A stretch of DNA of 64,000 nucleotides from IMG/VR virus record IMGVR_UViG_3300024999_001421; one strand, given 5' to 3'. The position numbers and the translations under genes are program-made. The stretch's first letter is position 1. The number at the start of each line of letters is the position of its first letter. The notes beneath the pieces were generated by a model. That model did no database searches. It was not told where the DNA came from and was given only the letters and a program-made list of their open reading frames with translations. The stretch comes from a virus. This document shows positions 4,683 through 56,335 of the stretch, one piece after another.

Positions 4683-4987
4683 CGTATACCATCAAGCAAA
4701 ATGATATAGGCACGCAGTTAACTTTCAACATAACTGACTCACAAGGACTTTCGTTAGACCTAACGGGATCAACTATAGTATGCACTATTTCTGGTGGTGA
4801 TATTCAAACAGAAATAACTAAGGCGTGTATCATAGATGATGCTAGCGCAGGAACATGTTATTGTGTATTAAGTTCTGATGATACGGCAATTGCTGGTAGT
4901 TATGCTGTAGAGGTGAATATAGATTACGGCGGTAGCAGTTTTACTACCGTAGACAAAGTAAGATTAAAAATATTAAGTGTTTTGTAG
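4679..4987 (+). CDS. BppU/DUF2479-like Ig-fold baseplate/fibre adaptor
   Basis: IKQNDIG..LTFNITD..G..LDLTGSTI...DASAGTCYCVL..DT..AGSY pattern. Confidence 0.7.
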   Translation: MTYTIKQNDIGTQLTFNITDSQGLSLDLTGSTIVCTISGGDIQTEITKACIIDDASAGTCYCVLSSDDTAIAGSYAVEVNIDYGGSSFTTVDKVRLKILSVL

Positions 4988-4997
4988 GTGATTTTTA

Positions 4998-6290
4998 ATG
5001 CCAGCCGGAGCCATAACCTTCACTGGGACAGTAACCAACATAGAAACAGACCTTCCAATAGGAGGAGTAGTCTGTGAAGTTGATATTATAGAGTACGAAG
5101 ATGGAAGTATACCACACTATCACACCTTGACAGCTACAACAGATATTAATGGCGTATATACTTGTAGTTTTTTGTGTGAGTATACCGATATAAACCCTAG
5201 TATAGTAATTGAATATATAAGGTTTAGTGCAGATTGGTATTTCCCGGAAGATATATATATCAATACAGGAATTTCCTGGACTACTACATACACATACACT
5301 AGAGATGCGGCCCTATATGCCGGAGGTACGATTGGCGGTAGGGTGGTAGATGAAACAGGGCAACCACTAACTACAGGTATTGCAAGCGTAGAATCAAATA
5401 GGGATGAAGAAGAATTCTACGCTAAAGGAGAAATTGACGGGGATGGTTATTACGACAGTAGACTATCTAATGAATACGATAAATTAGCTGTTAGTGGTAT
5501 CGGAACAGCTAATGTCTATTCAGCTTATACTCAACATACTCCGGTGGAAGTTAGTATAACACCTTTTCAGCATAACATTATTAACCTTCACGTTAAAGTT
5601 CATGGAAATGTTTCTGGTGTTGTTGTAGATAATAATGGAAAGACACTAGAAGGGGTTAAGTTAACTTTTCTTGTGGAGTATATGCCGGAAGATGTAGAAG
5701 TATACGTTCCAAATCCAATATACACTAATTCTAGCGGTGAGTGGTCTGCCGAGGGACTCCGTTTCGGTATTACCTATATAGTGGGAGCATCACTAGAAGG
5801 ATACGCATTTAGCGAACCATATTCACACGGTAGCGAGGTTCATTACTACGAAAAACCATTTCCCACGAACTTAGATCCGTCTATATTGATAGCTAGTTTT
5901 GGCGTTACGGATGATAGTATTGATTTTGTCGGAACATTAATACCTATCGCAGAAAAAAGAAAACCCATATTTTTAAAAACGGTAAACCAGTTAACCGATA
6001 GAAATTTAATGATAATAGCCGATCCGTATAACTACAATTTTAAAACACTTAGCATGTTCTGGACTAAAACATCCGGAGTTATAAACTTTAAAAAGCCAAT
6101 AGCTGTCGGTCAGGTAAATATCGGAGAATTAGAGAAAATAGTTAACGCCTATAACAGTAACTTTAGAAATATATCCTCGCAGATAAATATTAGCTTTAAA
6201 TATCCAGATGCTTCTAGTATTCAAGGTGTCGTTAATGCTTATAATGATAACTTCCGAAACTTAGAGGCATACCTAAATAAAAAGAGGTGA
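4998..6290 (+). CDS. Virion protein with tandem carboxypeptidase-regulatory-like (Ig) domains
   Basis: Repeated (I/V)xGxVxD..G.P(L/I).G...T...G.Y/W motifs. Confidence 0.6.
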   Translation: MPAGAITFTGTVTNIETDLPIGGVVCEVDIIEYEDGSIPHYHTLTATTDINGVYTCSFLCEYTDINPSIVIEYIRFSADWYFPEDIYINTGISWTTTYTYTRDAALYAGGTIGGRVVDETGQPLTTGIASVESNRDEEEFYAKGEIDGDGYYDSRLSNEYDKLAVSGIGTANVYSAYTQHTPVEVSITPFQHNIINLHVKVHGNVSGVVVDNNGKTLEGVKLTFLVEYMPEDVEVYVPNPIYTNSSGEWSAEGLRFGITYIVGASLEGYAFSEPYSHGSEVHYYEKPFPTNLDPSILIASFGVTDDSIDFVGTLIPIAEKRKPIFLKTVNQLTDRNLMIIADPYNYNFKTLSMFWTKTSGVINFKKPIAVGQVNIGELEKIVNAYNSNFRNISSQINISFKYPDASSIQGVVNAYNDNFRNLEAYLNKKR

Positions 6291-50072: not shown

Positions 50073-51361
50073 GCAGGGGAAAGATCCCCTGCTTTTTTAT
50101 GCAAAAAAAATTTACTATTTCCTGGTAGGCGGCTTTTAACGGGTATACCTCCATAAACCGGTGAGAGTTAAGCAGTAGCGTCTGTTGATTCGGCAATCGC
50201 GTCGTCAAGCCACTGAATTTCAGCTTGACGACGCTTTTTGTCTGCCTCAACATCGGCAATATACTGTTGGATGCAGAGTAATGCTTCTTTGCGCTGTATT
50301 GGATAATAATTTCTTGCCGGGTGACTGTGGCATTGGCAGGTGCCAAGACCTAGGTCGGAACTGCTGTAACAATTGATTTCTGTAATCATCCATTCGCCGT
50401 CATGGAAATACAGGGATTTTTCGGCAATATTGTCGCCGTACTGGTTGATTCTGGTTTCCAAAACTAAATCTTGACCTGCGCGTAAATTTTCAAGCATACC
50501 TTTTAGCATTTCAATTCCTCCCTTAGTTTTTAATCTCCTACCCAACGCCTTCTTGGACGCTTGGCAGGGGATTAAACCCCTGCTAACAACTATTCGACTA
50601 TTTGCGGATGCGCCACTGATTCCCAACCGTCACCTGTCCAGCGATAAGATTCTCCCATTGTAGGGATAACCATATCGCAACCATAGACAGTTTCATGCAC
50701 AAACTTTCCGTCGTAGCGTATAATTTCTTCAAGGATAAAGTCTTTCTTGTGACTTAACTCACTGGTGTTTCCTGATGTGGAAAACCCTGTGCGCTGTAGT
50801 TTTTCCGATCCGCTTCCTGGCATTGTGTACCATTTCGCAACCGGAACCGGCATTGCATCAAATGGACCAACCCTAGATTCCGATCTTTTGCTTTTGGAAC
50901 CACTTTCAGTTGTGTATCCTTCAGCGACCGCATACCACTTTCCGCTAGTTTGAAACATATTCATCATTTTTCCTCCTTCGCCGGTTCTCCCGGCACTAAT
51001 TTTTTAACCACAATCTCGCTAATCCCCTTCCCTTCAAATGCCGCCTGTTCGCGTAGTTTTTCAGCAAGCGACTTAGGGAAGGTTATGCTGATACGTATTT
51101 TGTCTCTCGGTATGGTCATACTTCCCATTTCCCTTCGGTCACGCATAGTATTTGACCAACGGAATCGGAACAAAGGTGTAGAGAACGGTATAATTTAGCT
51201 GTTTCCTCGCGGTTTCTGCCGAGATAGCGCGATGCTTCAACTGCATCACGGAAACTTTTAACAACATTGTCGTTGCGCTGTGGGAGTGCTTGGAATTTTC
51301 TCTCCCAATTACAGGTATCGAAAACTTGCTCTAACGTCATGGTATGCGCCTCCTTTTGCTT

Positions 51362-51403
51362 AGGTGATGCACTTATTATATAGCTTAGTGCATCACCTGT
51401 CAA
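51362..51403 (-). promoter_or_regulatory. Consensus sigma-A promoter overlapped by a 12-bp perfect inverted repeat (operator)
   Basis: TTGACA-N17-TATAAT; AGGTGATGCACT-N13-AGTGCATCACCT; RHH gene 50964-51119 lies downstream. Confidence 0.8.
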
Positions 51404-54400
51404 GCAAAAAAAATATTAAAGTTTAGCCATAATTTCCGACATTGCATATTTGATATTGTTTAACTTACTTTGCTCTATATCAATCAGGTTAACGAGTGCT
51501 AATGTATCCTCGCTGGACATATTATATTTACCGGACAATTCCCAGACTAACTTTTTAATCTCTCCAAGTCTGGATTGCTTTAGTTCATCGAAGCGTTGCG
51601 GTTGTGGTTTTGGTTGATTAGGATTAATCACTGTACCACCTCCACCCACTCTGCCGCTCTAAAATGCTCTGCCGTCCACTGACAGGCATCCAACGGCGAA
51701 GTTCCCCAGACTTCCTTCCGATCCACCCCAGCAGGGATAGTAGTTTTGCCTATGCGTAAGTCGGGGAAATGGACTGACAATCGGTATTTGCTTAACCCAG
51801 GTGTATTTGTACCTGTCGGCGTTTTGCCCCGCTGTATCGGGTTGCTAGACGTGTTTATGGTCATTGTGTTGCCTCCAATGTGCTTTCCTCTAACATCTTC
51901 CTAAGTTCCCTCGCCACGTTACCCAAAGCATCCGACTTACCACGATAATAACCTTCTAGGTACTCTTGGTTATTACGTTTCATTATTTCCATTTCGGTCT
52001 TAGCATTTATAGAACTCGTGGCGTAGTTTTGGATTAAAATCTCTATGTATTCCCGCATATAACGACCTCCCTCATAGTATTGGGGTAATCCCCTCCCGAA
52101 ACCCTCCTGCTAGAGAGTTTAGGCAAGGGACGTTAGTCCCTGCAATTATCCTGTAAGATGCAAATACCAAATTGATCTACCAGACTTATATCTTTTGTTT
52201 TCCTTGGTTACAAACTTAGTAACTTTAAACCTTACATAATTACTTCCATCCCTTCTAACACTGCCCGAAATGTTATTTCCTTTCATATACTTTTTTACTG
52301 CCTCGGTTGCATTTTTAGCTATTACTACCGCATCATCATTAAATAAACCTTTGTTTCCATCATAGATTAAATATGTATTAGTCATAAATCTAACCCCCTT
52401 TTAATTTTACCAAAATCCCCTCTTGTGACACTTTGGTAAAACTGCGGCGTTAAGGTGCCGCTTGCCTCATACTTGTTGCTAATCCAGTAAACGTGTTAAT
52501 TTATTTCCCTTGAATGGCTTTAGCGTTTCACTATCGTTCCACCAATGCCATTCTCCCCCGAAAAGTTTAGGAATGAAAATTTGCTGTTCTTTGTCTAGTG
52601 TGTACCTAAGATTATCCATATCAAGTGAAAATGTTTCCATGTCCTTCTGCATCTTTTCGCCTTGAATAATTCGCGCCCTCTGGATTTTAACCCTGCCGGT
52701 TTTTGTGTGACTGATAACTACTACAAGTGATTCTTGTGTCGTGTAGTACCAGTCCTTAACCGCAAAACCGTTTATTTTTAATATTTCCTGTGCCTTCTGT
52801 AAAGCTGTTTTGCCGTCCTTGTCGGTTGTCGGTTGTGCTGCGCCTATCGGTAATAGGTTGTTAATGTCTGTGGTATTACTTCCCTTTGTGCTACCGTTGC
52901 GAGCAATCTTTAAAACTCTAACTTGAGTAAATGTAGAGTAACAATAAATATGGTCAATGCGGTAAGTGCCGTTCCACTCCTTGACCTGGCACTCCTGACC
53001 AACCTTCCAACCGTCGAACTCCTGCACATATCCAGTTTTGACCTCTTGCCGTGGTGCTGTTGCTGTGATAATCGGCATTTGAGCGTTAGAGAAATTTATT
53101 ATCTTTGTCATGGTATGACCTCCTATGTTATAATATCGGTGGACATATATTTTCCCTGCTCCCCGGTTTTACTGCTCACAACAGCTACCGGGGAGTTTGA
53201 ATTTGTATATTAACAGGCGTATTTTCCCAGTACGGTTTTAGTTGTATTTTCCTTCCAGTTTGCGCTATTTATTATCGACCAATGTTTATTATAGCCGTTA
53301 AAATGCCTCAATAAATGGAGTATTTCGCGGTTATCCTGATCTACCCATAAGGAAAAGTTAGGGTATTGCTTGCCCTCGCTTTTTTCCAAGGCGTAAAAAT
53401 AGGCTTTAATTTCCTCTGCGCGGGCGGTAAGTTCTGCGTTAAATTTGAATTCATCCCCGAAGTTATGACCCTCGCGGTCTTTAAAAACTCGATAACCGGC
53501 CAAGTCAGGAAGAATAACAACCTCGTCAAAACTGCAACCCAGAGAATTTACAATACTGAGAATTTCGGATTTGGTGTACTTAAAAGTTTTGTGTCTCATA
53601 CTGACGATGCTGTGCTTGTTACAATCGTCGTCATTATGGATATAATGGCAATGGTCAACTATCCCGGCAAAGGTAAATTGTTTAACGCTTTTGACGCTGT
53701 TTTTGGTTACTTCAAAACCAGACATTTCTAAGTAGATTGCCTCCCCTTTGTCATTGTGAAAAGCTGTTCTAATGCGGCAATTTTCAACCATTCCGCGCGG
53801 TACGCATCCGGCACCTTCAAAATATAAAGTTTTCATAATTTTAGCCTCCCTCATAGTTTTAACTAAACCCTCTCGCAAAAGGATTTAGGTAAAACTGCGA
53901 CTTTAGGTAGTCGCGGACCTGCTACCTAGTCCAATATTTCCTTTGATTTTGCCATAAACTAAATGCCTGAGATTCGGTTGGAGCAATGTTAAGTAAGGAA
54001 TTATAATTGTAGTAATTGCCCGACCTTCCTATTTTTACTTGAAGTAGGAATTTATTACCATATGAAAATACGGTGAATATATTTTTAAAACTCTTGAACT
54101 CGTTTACTATCATAATATCCCTCCTATATTTACCTCAACAAAACCCCTCTCTAAAGGAGTTTTGGCGAAGCAGGGACCGGAGTCCCTATTCCTTGCACAT
54201 CCCAGAAACTTGTCGCTTGTGTATTTGCATTTCTATAGTAGCAAGTTCCAAGTATGCTTCTACTTTTTGATCCCAATGTGCCGGGACTTGCGGATCGTTG
54301 ACAATTTCCAGAATTTCAAGCGCATCCTTCTTTTCTTGCAGTATTTCTGAATCTTGAAGCGTCTCAAGGTGCTTCCAAATAGATTCCATGAATATTACTT

Positions 54401-55027
54401 TTTCCTCAAACATAATTATCATCCTCCTTAGATTTTACGTCCAACCCCTACAGGGACCAGAGGTAAAACCTAGCGAGTGCTAGGTTAGTGCCTGCCATAT
54501 TCTATGGTTAATTCTAAAGTGTCCTTTTCGACATCTCTCCTTAATTTTGCCGTACTCCTACAGTCTTTATTTTCCTCTTTCCAATCAATACCCATTTGGC
54601 GAAAATATAATGTTACTTCGGTCAAATCACCCTTAAGCAAGTCCTTCCATGTGTAGTCAAAGAAAATTAACAAGTCTGTACAGTAGCAGTCGCATTGCTT
54701 AACCGCTTCGCGCAGTAACGCTTCTTTTATCGACTGCGTGTTTTGTTCTTCACCGTAAGAATTGCAAACCTGAAGTTCCTTAATGTTTACTTTCGGCATA
54801 ATCATCAATCTCCTTTTAGTTTAAATTCACGTCAATTCCCTTGTGGGTACTCACGCAAACCTAAACTACCATGCTTCCCCTTTTCTGCACCTCTAGCGGA
54901 TATCCCTTCGGGTCCAGTGTTCGCTTGCCTTGGCTGGCCCTTTCGGATTATGCCGACTTCGCTGGTTCGCGCTGTGGGGTTTTTGTATTCTTTTCTGCGT
55001 GTGCGGTGCGCTTTGTTGCTGTGGTTT

Positions 55028-55085
55028 CCCACTATGGCCACTTTCGGCCATTTCGACTTGTTACCGTCAAGTCTCGTCAGGTGGG
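55028..55085 (-). ncRNA. Type I hammerhead ribozyme (HH2)
   Basis: CCCAC-CUGACGA-GACUUG(ACGGUAA)CAAGUC-GAAA-UGGCC(GAAAGU)GGCCA-UA/GUGGG; full core and three perfect stems. Confidence 0.93.
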
Positions 55086-55423: not shown

Positions 55424-55474
55424 CCTGCTATGGGGTTTTATCCCCATTTCGCTGTCTACAGCTCATCAGGCAGG
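55424..55474 (-). ncRNA. Type I hammerhead ribozyme (HH1)
   Basis: CCUGC-CUGAUGA-GCUG(UAGA)CAGC-GAAA-UGGGG(AUAAAA)CCCCA-UA/GCAGG; full core and three perfect stems. Confidence 0.93.
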
Positions 55475-55790: not shown

Positions 55791-55863
55791 ATACTATCAT
55801 CTGGATACCCATGCCGTAAAGCCTCAAATAACCTTATATTCAGCCATTTATGGGTATCCAGAT
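55791..55863 (-). promoter_or_regulatory. Promoter of the leftward operon with a 14-bp inverted-repeat operator
   Basis: TTTACG-N18-TAGTAT with extended TG; ATCTGGATACCCAT (55799) and ATGGGTATCCAGAT (55850). Confidence 0.6.
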
Positions 55864-56075: not shown

Positions 56076-56335
56076 TTTGACCACCTCCAAAGACAGTATA
56101 CTACATGGGCTTCCATATGGCAACCCAGCCATTAGACGGATCTGCATTTGCCGGAAATGCTATATATAGAAGGAAAACGGAAAGTTTTGCTTGAAAATGG
56201 GCTTTGGCCGTGGTAAAATGGTAGTGTGGGGGTTTTATACCATGTTGTTTTTACCTACTGTATTGAGTAGGGATATATCGTTTTCGAGGCACCTGAGAGG
56301 GTGCTTTTTGCTTTACATAGAAGGAAGGTGAATTT

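Follow-up and report, generated by a model that had tools for sequence, protein, structure and literature searches.

Most intergenic gaps of a minus-strand operon in an uncultivated groundwater phage, known from IMG/VR record IMGVR_UViG_3300024999_001421, contain stems that belong to a conserved family at the RNA level and clearly covary. Two hairpins, H1 and H2, make up each copy of this H1-H2 module, which we found at six junctions (J1, J2, J3, J5, J6, and J7), together with a weaker member (J0), in the 64,000-nt stretch of DNA analyzed here (the window). Judging from the sequence and its comparative analysis, we tentatively favor, at slightly less than even chances, the view that the H1-H2 spacer is an RNA-level separator of cistrons that is cut in trans, most likely by the host RNase III.

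Architecture and covariation of the H1-H2 module

The module begins at the stop codon of the upstream gene, which lies inside H1 or at most ~11 nt 5' of it. H1, a GC hairpin of 5-8 bp with a variable loop, abuts or overlaps H2, a hairpin of 40-44 nt and 16-19 bp composed of a 7-bp lower stem, usually one pyrimidine-pyrimidine (Y-Y) mismatch, an upper stem of ~11 bp, and a tetraloop. A strong Shine-Dalgarno sequence follows 1-8 nt 3' of H2, and the start codon ~15-20 nt 3' of it. A preliminary description of this DNA had reported stems in six minus-strand spacers; all six are present and fold better than shuffled sequences (z-scores of -2.5 to -4.2). The common layout that it proposed holds for J1, J2, J3, J5, and J6, but J7 belongs to a related but distinct type that our family model R1 did not find. 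It had also missed that H1 itself is conserved and overlaps the stop codon.

At J1, downstream of a 104-aa gene, H1 (54469-54484; all features given here are on the minus strand) comes right after the TAA stop codon (54485-54487), overlaps the base of H2 with its 3' arm, and has compensatory variants in the related contigs L139, L140, and L003; H2 (54430-54471) has 42 nt, with 9 + 9 bp around a C-C mismatch and a UGUA loop, the Shine-Dalgarno sequence starting 2 nt 3' of it. At J2, a 5-bp GC hairpin (H1, 54173-54186) overlaps the last base of a TAG stop codon and precedes an H2 (54131-54172) of 7 bp, a C-U mismatch, 11 bp, and a UAGA loop; the two hairpins and positions 5386-5445 of contig L141 share 100% identity along 60 nt, the flanking genes being unrelated. 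The J3 module consists of a 6-bp GC hairpin (H1, 53897-53914) and the top match of the family (H2, 53855-53896; 53.1 bits), again with 7 bp, a C-U mismatch, and 11 bp, and with a UGCG loop. J5 has a 5-bp GC H1 with an 8-nt loop (52444-52461) that abuts a 41-nt H2 (52403-52443) with a fully paired lower part of 13-14 bp, a small apical stem, and no Y-Y mismatch. In the H2 of J6 (52088-52131), the lower stem UCCCUUG/GAGGGGA contains a G-G mismatch and is followed by a U-C mismatch, a 9-bp upper stem, and an AGCA loop; since the 3' arm of its GC hairpin H1 (52123-52143) doubles as the 5' strand of this lower stem, H1 and H2 of J6 are mutually exclusive. J7 has a distinct module (50529-50583, H1 at 50564-50583) whose spacer is homologous to spacers of L143 and L142; here the loop and the 3' arm of H1 pair with the segment that precedes the Shine-Dalgarno sequence, which lengthens the short inner hairpin to a stem of ~19 bp (50529-50576). 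The weak member J0 (54817-54868; 13 bits) is a hairpin of ~22 bp just 5' of the Shine-Dalgarno sequence of the 104-aa gene, homologous to short S-type H2 hairpins in L003, L139, and L141; the two S-type copies have only ~14 bp.

The Y-Y mismatch, located 9-11 bp below the loop and earlier claimed for three spacers, occurs in J1 (C-C), J2 and J3 (C-U), and J6 (U-C, in addition to G-G), and is missing from the J5 type and from one J3 orthologue, so that it is frequent and not universal. The AGGG-type 3' arm of the preliminary description is likewise frequent, but it is not conserved in relatives, for which reason we dropped the idea that the H2 arms mimic Shine-Dalgarno or anti-Shine-Dalgarno sequences.

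Covariance modeling placed 27 copies, all on the sense strand, in the window and five related contigs, with no copies elsewhere. Within the window, model R1 recognized five copies (E-values of 9e-10 to 5e-6), all of them on the sense strand and within 2.4 kb, and nothing comparable in the other 60 kb, even with filters off; it also recovered copies outside its training set in L139, L140, and L142, and reverse-strand scores were 14-34 bits below those of the sense strand. A gapless alignment of 14 H2 copies has 95.6% of its cells paired and double compensatory changes in 12 of 18 pairs, which none of 500 shuffles reached, and sliding the partners as a control made pairing fall to at most 62%. 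The alignment of the J1 type (four orthologues) has 97% of its cells paired and double changes in four pairs. G-U pairs account for 82 of 425 pairs (19%). The possibility, raised in the preliminary description, that the stems might not covary is thus dismissed. The length of H2 is constant at 40-44 nt despite a mean identity of ~65-70%; part of this constancy could stem from shared ancestry and recombination and not from an enzyme that acts as a ruler. Sequence is conserved in the lower stem, which forms three covarying subfamilies, and in a CC/G core, with C8, C9, and G34 (and hence the pair C9-G34) invariant in the 14 copies, while the loops and the sequence of the upper stem vary freely.

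Searches with the H2 model detected no H2 in contigs L004-L010, among which L005 carries two-hairpin modules that are analogous but differ in sequence, or in Clostridia contigs carrying homologues of the 208-aa gene (F0). An IMG/VR scan for the DNA pattern of the AGUUUUACC...UAAAAYU frame returned chance single matches only (116 stretches), and none of the 80 loci listed passed the model. A crude count of all hairpins of at least 15 bp in the whole window had too loose a criterion to tell anything. The sequencing runs that match the stretch are four groundwater DNA runs from one study, with no RNA run listed.

Ribozymes and mosaic gene neighbors at the same junctions

In close relatives, the plain hairpin module and three classes of ribozymes share junctions beside the same genes. 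On the 3' side of the 104-aa gene (F3), the window, L139, and L140 carry an H1-H2 module and L003 a pistol ribozyme. Downstream of the 43-aa gene (F7), a type I hammerhead right after the stop codon in the window (55424-55474) corresponds to a pistol in L139. At the junction that follows F0, the window, L141, and L003 have a different two-tier hairpin (J4, at 53159-53195 in the window), L142 a J7-type module, and L005 a pistol. Another type I hammerhead of the window (55028-55085) directly follows the stop codon of a 94-aa gene. Besides these two hammerheads, the Rfam scan (hammerhead, twister, twister-sister, pistol, hatchet, HDV-like, and hairpin ribozymes) found pistol, twister-P5, and hammerhead II ribozymes in the relatives, and at the H1-H2 junctions it gave no match at the gathering threshold or at E-values up to 10.

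Because the slots of H1-H2 are ribozyme slots in relatives, the module most likely marks cut points in a long message. According to one proposal, hammerheads that flank phage genes serve in the processing of long transcripts (PMC3088659); which motif occupies such sites seems unimportant, and what purpose the numerous self-cleaving ribozymes of phage and prophage operons serve is still an open question (PMC6765202). The earlier suggestion that ribozymes process some junctions of this operon and hairpins the others has strong comparative support, ribozymes and modules being swapped at orthologous junctions, but its RNase III part is a step that we infer. Translational coupling across the spacer as a "bridge" was discarded because RNA-severing ribozymes sit in the same slots and each downstream gene has its own strong Shine-Dalgarno sequence.

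The operon is highly mosaic and rich in ORFans. Its spacers are homology islands of 45-95 nt with 80-100% identity between unrelated genes, that is, at mosaic boundaries, and one module type adjoins different genes in different phages; the modules illustrate how a regulatory RNA can also supply the homology for the phage trade in small accessory genes. Ten operon proteins searched against Pfam and PHROG matched no real family, with the exception of a weak ribbon-helix-helix match for the first gene. The predicted structure of F0 (pLDDT 71) had no fold match in the PDB, the 210-aa and 125-aa proteins had no relatives in viral contigs, and a blastn search of GenBank phages with the operon found nothing. 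Relatives of the F0 gene are located in Clostridia contigs. No integrase flanks the operon, the divergent neighbor gene encoding an HTH protein, and the complete relative G003 has no match to PF00589 (tyrosine recombinase), although 8 modules are present, and no RNase III domain. The likely operon promoter (TTGCCA-17-TATACT) lies at 56095-56123, and the best sites of the promoter scan were 56123-56095 and 51403-51375; the modules contain no strong promoter-like site, only weak 9/12 sense-strand matches over J1, J2, and J5.

Proposed cleavage in trans and alternative readings

If the H1-H2 spacer is cut in trans, the polycistronic RNA of what would be an early or accessory operon could be divided at these spacers into monocistronic pieces. 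H2, with its two-tier helix of ~19 bp and fixed geometry, would be the substrate of a double-strand-specific endonuclease of the host, most likely RNase III, which to our knowledge is nearly universal in bacteria, and the cut would probably fall in the vicinity of the mismatch, at a distance of 10-13 nt below the loop of H2. H1, placed on the stop codon and abutting H2, may then stay on the upstream mRNA as a 3'-terminal cap, and the downstream mRNA would begin a few nucleotides 5' of the strong Shine-Dalgarno sequence, with a short, context-free leader. A trans-acting enzyme would thereby do at the module the job of the pistol, hammerhead, and twister ribozymes at equivalent junctions of the same operon family, and, as a side effect, the conserved spacers could serve as homology islands for the exchange of gene cassettes between phages. 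H2 has about two turns of double-stranded RNA in two tiers, as expected for an RNase III site, with a slightly short helix and a 1x1 loop, and lies between cistrons of a polycistronic phage transcript without a terminator tail. Several observations speak against RNase III: 16-19 bp is at the short end for this enzyme, and the S-type helices are shorter still; the Y-Y mismatch is not found in all copies; and the internal loop of the T7 sites is larger and asymmetric, not 1x1. Against a cut of any kind, a stable hairpin just 5' of a Shine-Dalgarno sequence could insulate without being cleaved.

Accordingly, a possible but not probable alternative is an uncut structural insulator or stabilizer, in which H1-H2 folds, shields the downstream ribosome binding site from the sequence upstream, stops exonucleases arriving from ends made by ribozymes elsewhere, and leaves Rho and RNases no single-stranded landing place in the ~80-nt untranslated gap. 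Such a device would account for the near-constant spacing between H2 and the Shine-Dalgarno sequence and for a structure kept while its loops and upper-stem sequence drift, and context-independent expression would be useful in so mosaic an operon. It leaves unexplained the fixed 7+1+11 geometry, the recurrent mismatch, and the separate H1, as well as the presence of self-cleaving ribozymes in the same slots of relatives.

We regard as rather unlikely that some other specific factor, either a phage RNA-binding protein or nuclease or a hairpin-guided host single-strand endonuclease of the RNase Y or E type, reads the conserved lower stem and the CC/G core. The conservation of the H2 base within each subfamily, the three invariant positions, and an operon full of ORFans are compatible with such a factor, but the three lower-stem subfamilies differ in sequence and keep their pairing, which favors recognition of shape over sequence, and none of the operon proteins has a match among the families of RNA-binding proteins or nucleases, F0, the sole protein folded, lacking a recognizable fold match.

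It is improbable that the modules are DNA-level elements only, devoid of any RNA role, whether as PeSL-like recombination linkers or as attC-like single-strand sites that shuffle cassettes. The islands of 80-100% identity between unrelated genes, the same module beside different genes, and an array layout reminiscent of integrons (confusions of this kind are discussed in PMC5737381) could be read in this sense. However, compensatory changes maintain a hairpin for which plain homologous recombination has no use, nearly a fifth of the pairs are G-U, orientation is strictly sense, the islands take in the Shine-Dalgarno sequence and its spacing, and the module-rich G003 has no tyrosine recombinase and the HTH neighbor gene does not encode an integrase.

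That the modules act as leaky intrinsic terminators or attenuators, with H1 and a UUUU tract stopping some polymerases and H2 competing for the tract, is very improbable. The earlier claim that no spacer has a terminator U-tail needs a qualification, as J1, J3, and J5 have a short U run, (A/G)GUUUUA, directly 3' of H1. In the AGUUUUA subfamily this run of four U is sequestered by H2, and J3 is the only one whose H1 passes a simple terminator scan; but only this one of seven does so, the 9 sites counted in the region do not exceed the number in shuffled sequences (6.5 +/- 2.3), and the other two lower-stem subfamilies lack a U run, so that the scan indicates that the stems are not terminators.

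A new class of self-cleaving ribozyme is equally hard to credit. H1-H2 does share its slot and gene neighborhood with pistol, hammerhead, and twister and matches no Rfam family, and the same argument led to the discovery of twister and pistol (PMC6765202), but conserved unpaired nucleotides are nearly absent (the loops vary and there is a single mismatch), inspection by eye showed neither loop-loop nor pseudoknot complementarity that is conserved, and known small ribozymes need a multi-helix core. Identity with pistol itself was rejected, the H1 loops having no conserved complementarity to H2. We give similarly little credence to a minimal self-cleaving RNA or a ribosome-triggered element, in which a terminating ribosome would melt H1 and create a cleavable fold, evolved as a same-slot alternative to pistol, hammerhead, or twister.

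Comparison with known systems

A close parallel is provided by prophage operons punctuated by hammerhead, twister, and pistol ribozymes (Perreault 2011, PMC3088659; Weinberg 2019, PMC6765202), which belong to the same operon family and use the same slots, counted from the stop codon. H1-H2 differs from them in having no ribozyme core and no Rfam match, and a protein enzyme would therefore be needed. The RNase III sites between the early genes of T7, which also form a polycistronic operon, are likewise paralogous two-tier hairpins of ~45-46 nt, and their agreement with H1-H2 in position, size, and two-tier geometry counts in favor of the processing view. When folded, these spacers show a lower stem of 5-6 bp at or near the stop codon, an internal loop, an upper stem of 9-11 bp, a loop of 4-5 nt, no U tail, and a Shine-Dalgarno sequence 10-25 nt after. 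We take the names of the sites (R0.3, R0.5, R1, R1.1, and R1.3) and their cut positions to be those of Dunn and Studier 1983. They differ from H1-H2 in their asymmetric internal loop of several nucleotides instead of a 1x1 Y-Y mismatch, in the absence of a separate H1, and in sequence, to which H1-H2 has no similarity; moreover, T7 has a Gram-negative host and its cleavage is proven, whereas that of H1-H2 is presumed. RNAs of phage SP82 are RNase III targets in B. subtilis (PMC4838370, its refs 19 and 20), and the early RNAs of SP82/SPO1 are thus cut by the RNase III of a Firmicute host, a likeness of enzyme and host setting. This setting suits the context of the window operon, with its strong Shine-Dalgarno sequences and link to Clostridia; the SPO1 host-takeover spacers that we examined are cassettes of promoter, leader, and Shine-Dalgarno sequence, not H1-H2 modules.

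Two further systems resemble the modules as mobile cassettes. The PeSL elements of T4-type phages (PMC2839356, PMC4122927) are short conserved intergenic stem-loop cassettes that flank ORFans in hyperplastic regions and act as exchange points between unrelated sequences, and H1-H2, too, is conserved as an intergenic cassette at breakpoints where unrelated genes meet. A PeSL combines a terminator-like stem-loop with an early promoter, whereas H1-H2 lacks a promoter and precedes a Shine-Dalgarno sequence, and its covariation shows that the structure is selected. Integron attC sites share with H1-H2 one imperfect hairpin per cassette, an array in the same orientation, a base that is conserved below a variable top, and bases left unpaired, but the H1-H2 operon has no integrase, no R-box consensus was recognized by reading, the conserved unit includes the Shine-Dalgarno sequence, and the element measures 42 nt versus roughly 57-141 nt for attC. 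If H2 is an RNase III site, the function common to hairpins and ribozymes would be the separation of cistrons, and ribozymes and nuclease sites would thus be interchangeable parts; the modules resemble the insulators that synthetic biology has built from ribozymes and Csy4 hairpins.

Two-hairpin modules in a small-gene operon

The window belongs to a tailed-phage genome coding for RecT, a primase-helicase, a P22-like portal and an FtsK-like ATPase, and a search of sequencing runs found its sequence only in groundwater metagenomes. A 6-kb block (~56120-50168), in opposite orientation to the remaining genome, forms an operon that starts with a promoter-like site (56123-56095) and a ribbon-helix-helix gene, followed by ~16 small proteins without known families. 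Where neighbouring genes do not overlap, 60-330 nt lie between them, and each such gap is occupied by a structured element. These elements are two type I hammerheads, a large hairpin, the J4 hairpin, a promoter and operator palindrome (51403-51375, minus strand) and two-hairpin modules. This internal promoter (region 51367-51522) is a perfect sigma-70 site, TTGACA-17-TATAAT, with which an 11-bp inverted repeat is interleaved. Toward its 3' side the region locally matches the terminal part of Rfam RAGATH-7 (15.5 bits, far under threshold), a hint that this motif consists in part of promoter plus operator. The spacer that separates the ribbon-helix-helix gene from the small gene after it contains a 12-bp perfect stem with a ~37-nt loop (55801-55861, minus strand), which recurs in a related contig (L001:3715).

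The six intergenic spacers with long stems reported in the preliminary description were all located where it had placed them; they share one plan and fold better than their shuffles (z from -2.5 to -4.2). A GC hairpin of 5-8 bp (H1), with the upstream stop codon inside it or at most ~11 nt before, adjoins a second hairpin (H2) without a linker or shares a few bases with it. H2 measures 40-44 nt and comprises a 7-bp lower stem, an ~11-bp upper stem and a tetraloop, usually with one pyrimidine-pyrimidine mismatch between the two stems; a Shine-Dalgarno sequence follows within 1-8 nt and the start codon at 15-20 nt. At junctions J6 and J7 the H1 and long-stem folds are mutually exclusive because the H1 3' arm is used by both. 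The original observation is confirmed and extended; a weaker seventh member, J0 (54817-54868, minus strand), precedes the gene for the 104-aa protein F3.

Covariation in the transcript

Related contigs were reached via F3 and the 208-aa operon protein F0 (L141/L001, L003, a complete 70-kb genome, L139, L140 and L142), and a covariance model was trained on 14 H2 cores. It matched 27 copies, all of them in sense orientation, across the window and these relatives; some lie on contigs outside the training set. With filters off, the rest of the 64-kb window gave no further match except a weak one inside a gene, and scans of more distant relatives returned no copies.

Fourteen copies, each exactly 42 nt, align without gaps (7 bp, 1 unpaired, 11 bp, 4-nt loop), with 95.6% of cells paired. 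The covariation analysis proposed in the preliminary description, run on these aligned copies, revealed compensatory, both-sided changes in 12 of the 18 pairs; none of 500 shuffles reached the observed pairing or covariation score, and sliding the partner strand by 1-3 columns lowered pairing to 42-62%. The lower stem occurs in three pairing versions (AGUUUUA/UAAAACU, UGCUUCG/UGAGGUA and UCCCUUG/GAGGGGA), while C8, C9 and G34 are invariant. The J1 type is 97% paired, with both-sided changes in four pairs across four orthologues, and H1 keeps its stem by compensatory changes around a variable loop. G-U pairs account for 82 of 425 pairs, all copies are sense and reverse-strand scores are much lower; therefore, the structure under selection is that of the transcript.

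Between hammerhead 2 and J0 lies a ~100-nt conserved structured RNA (54877-54979, minus strand) without an Rfam match, with a closing CCCC/GGGG helix, two inner hairpins and long invariant single-stranded runs. Aligned together with J0, it shows 10 both-sided pair changes across six phages over the whole consensus fold. The flanking ribozyme and hairpin would release this RNA.

Portable junctions and ribozymes

When the operon was compared with its relatives by blastn, the spacers stood out over their whole stop-to-start length as 45-95-nt islands of 80-100% identity, often bordered by genes without similarity in protein clustering. The J2 H1 and H2 share 60 identical nt with L141:5386-5445, where both flanking genes differ, and one module type adjoins different genes in different phages. 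Such conserved islands between dissimilar genes make the modules portable junction cassettes that mark mosaic breakpoints, much as PeSL cassettes do in T4-type phages (PMC2839356, PMC4122927). The host-takeover region of SPO1 (L168, 1-14000) contains another form of portable junction cassette, namely a repeated early promoter cassette of ~58-69 nt and a ~40-nt leader with a Shine-Dalgarno box ahead of many small genes.

In the corresponding operons of relatives, Rfam scans detected ribozymes (pistol, twister-P5 and type II hammerhead) that occupy the same slots as the modules. Right after the F3 stop, the window, L139 and L140 carry the J1 module and L003 a pistol. The position directly following the 43-aa gene's stop is filled by a hammerhead in the window and by a pistol in L139; downstream of F0, the J4 hairpin is found in the window, L141 and L003, a J7-type module in L142 and a pistol in L005.

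At two junctions of L005, a 65%-identical relative, two hairpins are arranged in this layout as well but with unrelated sequence (4905-4975 and 5905-5975), beside a twister-P5 and a pistol; in both modules, the 3' arm of the short hairpin extends a ~21-bp stem. Hammerhead-like motifs at L141:4243-4300 and L009:8425-8490, with U instead of A after GAA, are possibly the U15.1-A16.1 variant, and another at L142:783 has its cleavage position occupied by G; all three may be weak or inactive variants. F0 (53210-53836, minus strand), a Cys/His-rich ORFan, is the most widespread operon gene, present at 26 metagenome loci and in 21 genome contigs, chiefly from Clostridia (Oscillospiraceae, Lachnospiraceae). 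Its AF2 model (pLDDT 71) had no fold match in PDB, and in at least 11 of the F0 loci scanned, the flanks examined include a ribozyme of the pistol, twister or type II hammerhead class.

A candidate processing site

The ribozymes of such operons have been proposed to split long phage transcripts into mRNAs of gene length (PMC3088659), and reviewers have argued that cleavage as such is needed, the exact motif being unimportant (PMC6765202). Because the H1-H2 element replaces ribozymes, has neither a ribozyme-like core nor an Rfam match and forms a ~19-bp helix of fixed geometry, it can most simply be read as a site for a double-strand-specific nuclease. The modules are also of interest as a test bed for ribozyme function.

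Uncut insulator or stabiliser hairpins would account for module position and structure but leave the geometry, H1 and the ribozyme swaps unexplained. A phage protein with specificity for the modules, or a different nuclease, could possibly act on them; none of the ten operon proteins searched has a telling family, nor has F0, the one modelled, a telling fold. A purely DNA-level role would fit the homology islands, yet it is at odds with the covariation, the G-U content and the absence of a recombinase, none being found in a complete relative or flanking the operon. A new ribozyme is unlikely since almost no unpaired nucleotides are conserved, and terminators are excluded for most copies.

Cleavage by RNase III, originally proposed for the stems alongside two ribozyme junctions, gains comparative support from the ribozyme swaps and T7-like anatomy and is a plausible hypothesis for the modules. 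A complete relative lacks an RNase III gene, so the enzyme would have to come from the host. The presence of F0 homologues in Clostridia contigs suggests a Firmicute-type host, which the SP82 precedent, as cited in PMC4838370, fits. By analogy with T7, cleavage would take place on the H2 3' arm, at the mismatch or immediately below it, leaving H1 on the upstream mRNA as a 3' cap, and the downstream mRNA would begin a few bases ahead of its own Shine-Dalgarno sequence. When folded, the RNase III-site spacers of the T7 early operon yield a paralogous family of ~46-nt hairpins with the same anatomy as H2: a lower stem of 5-6 bp, located at the stop codon, is separated by an internal loop from an upper stem of 9-10 bp with a 4-5-nt loop, and the next Shine-Dalgarno lies shortly downstream.
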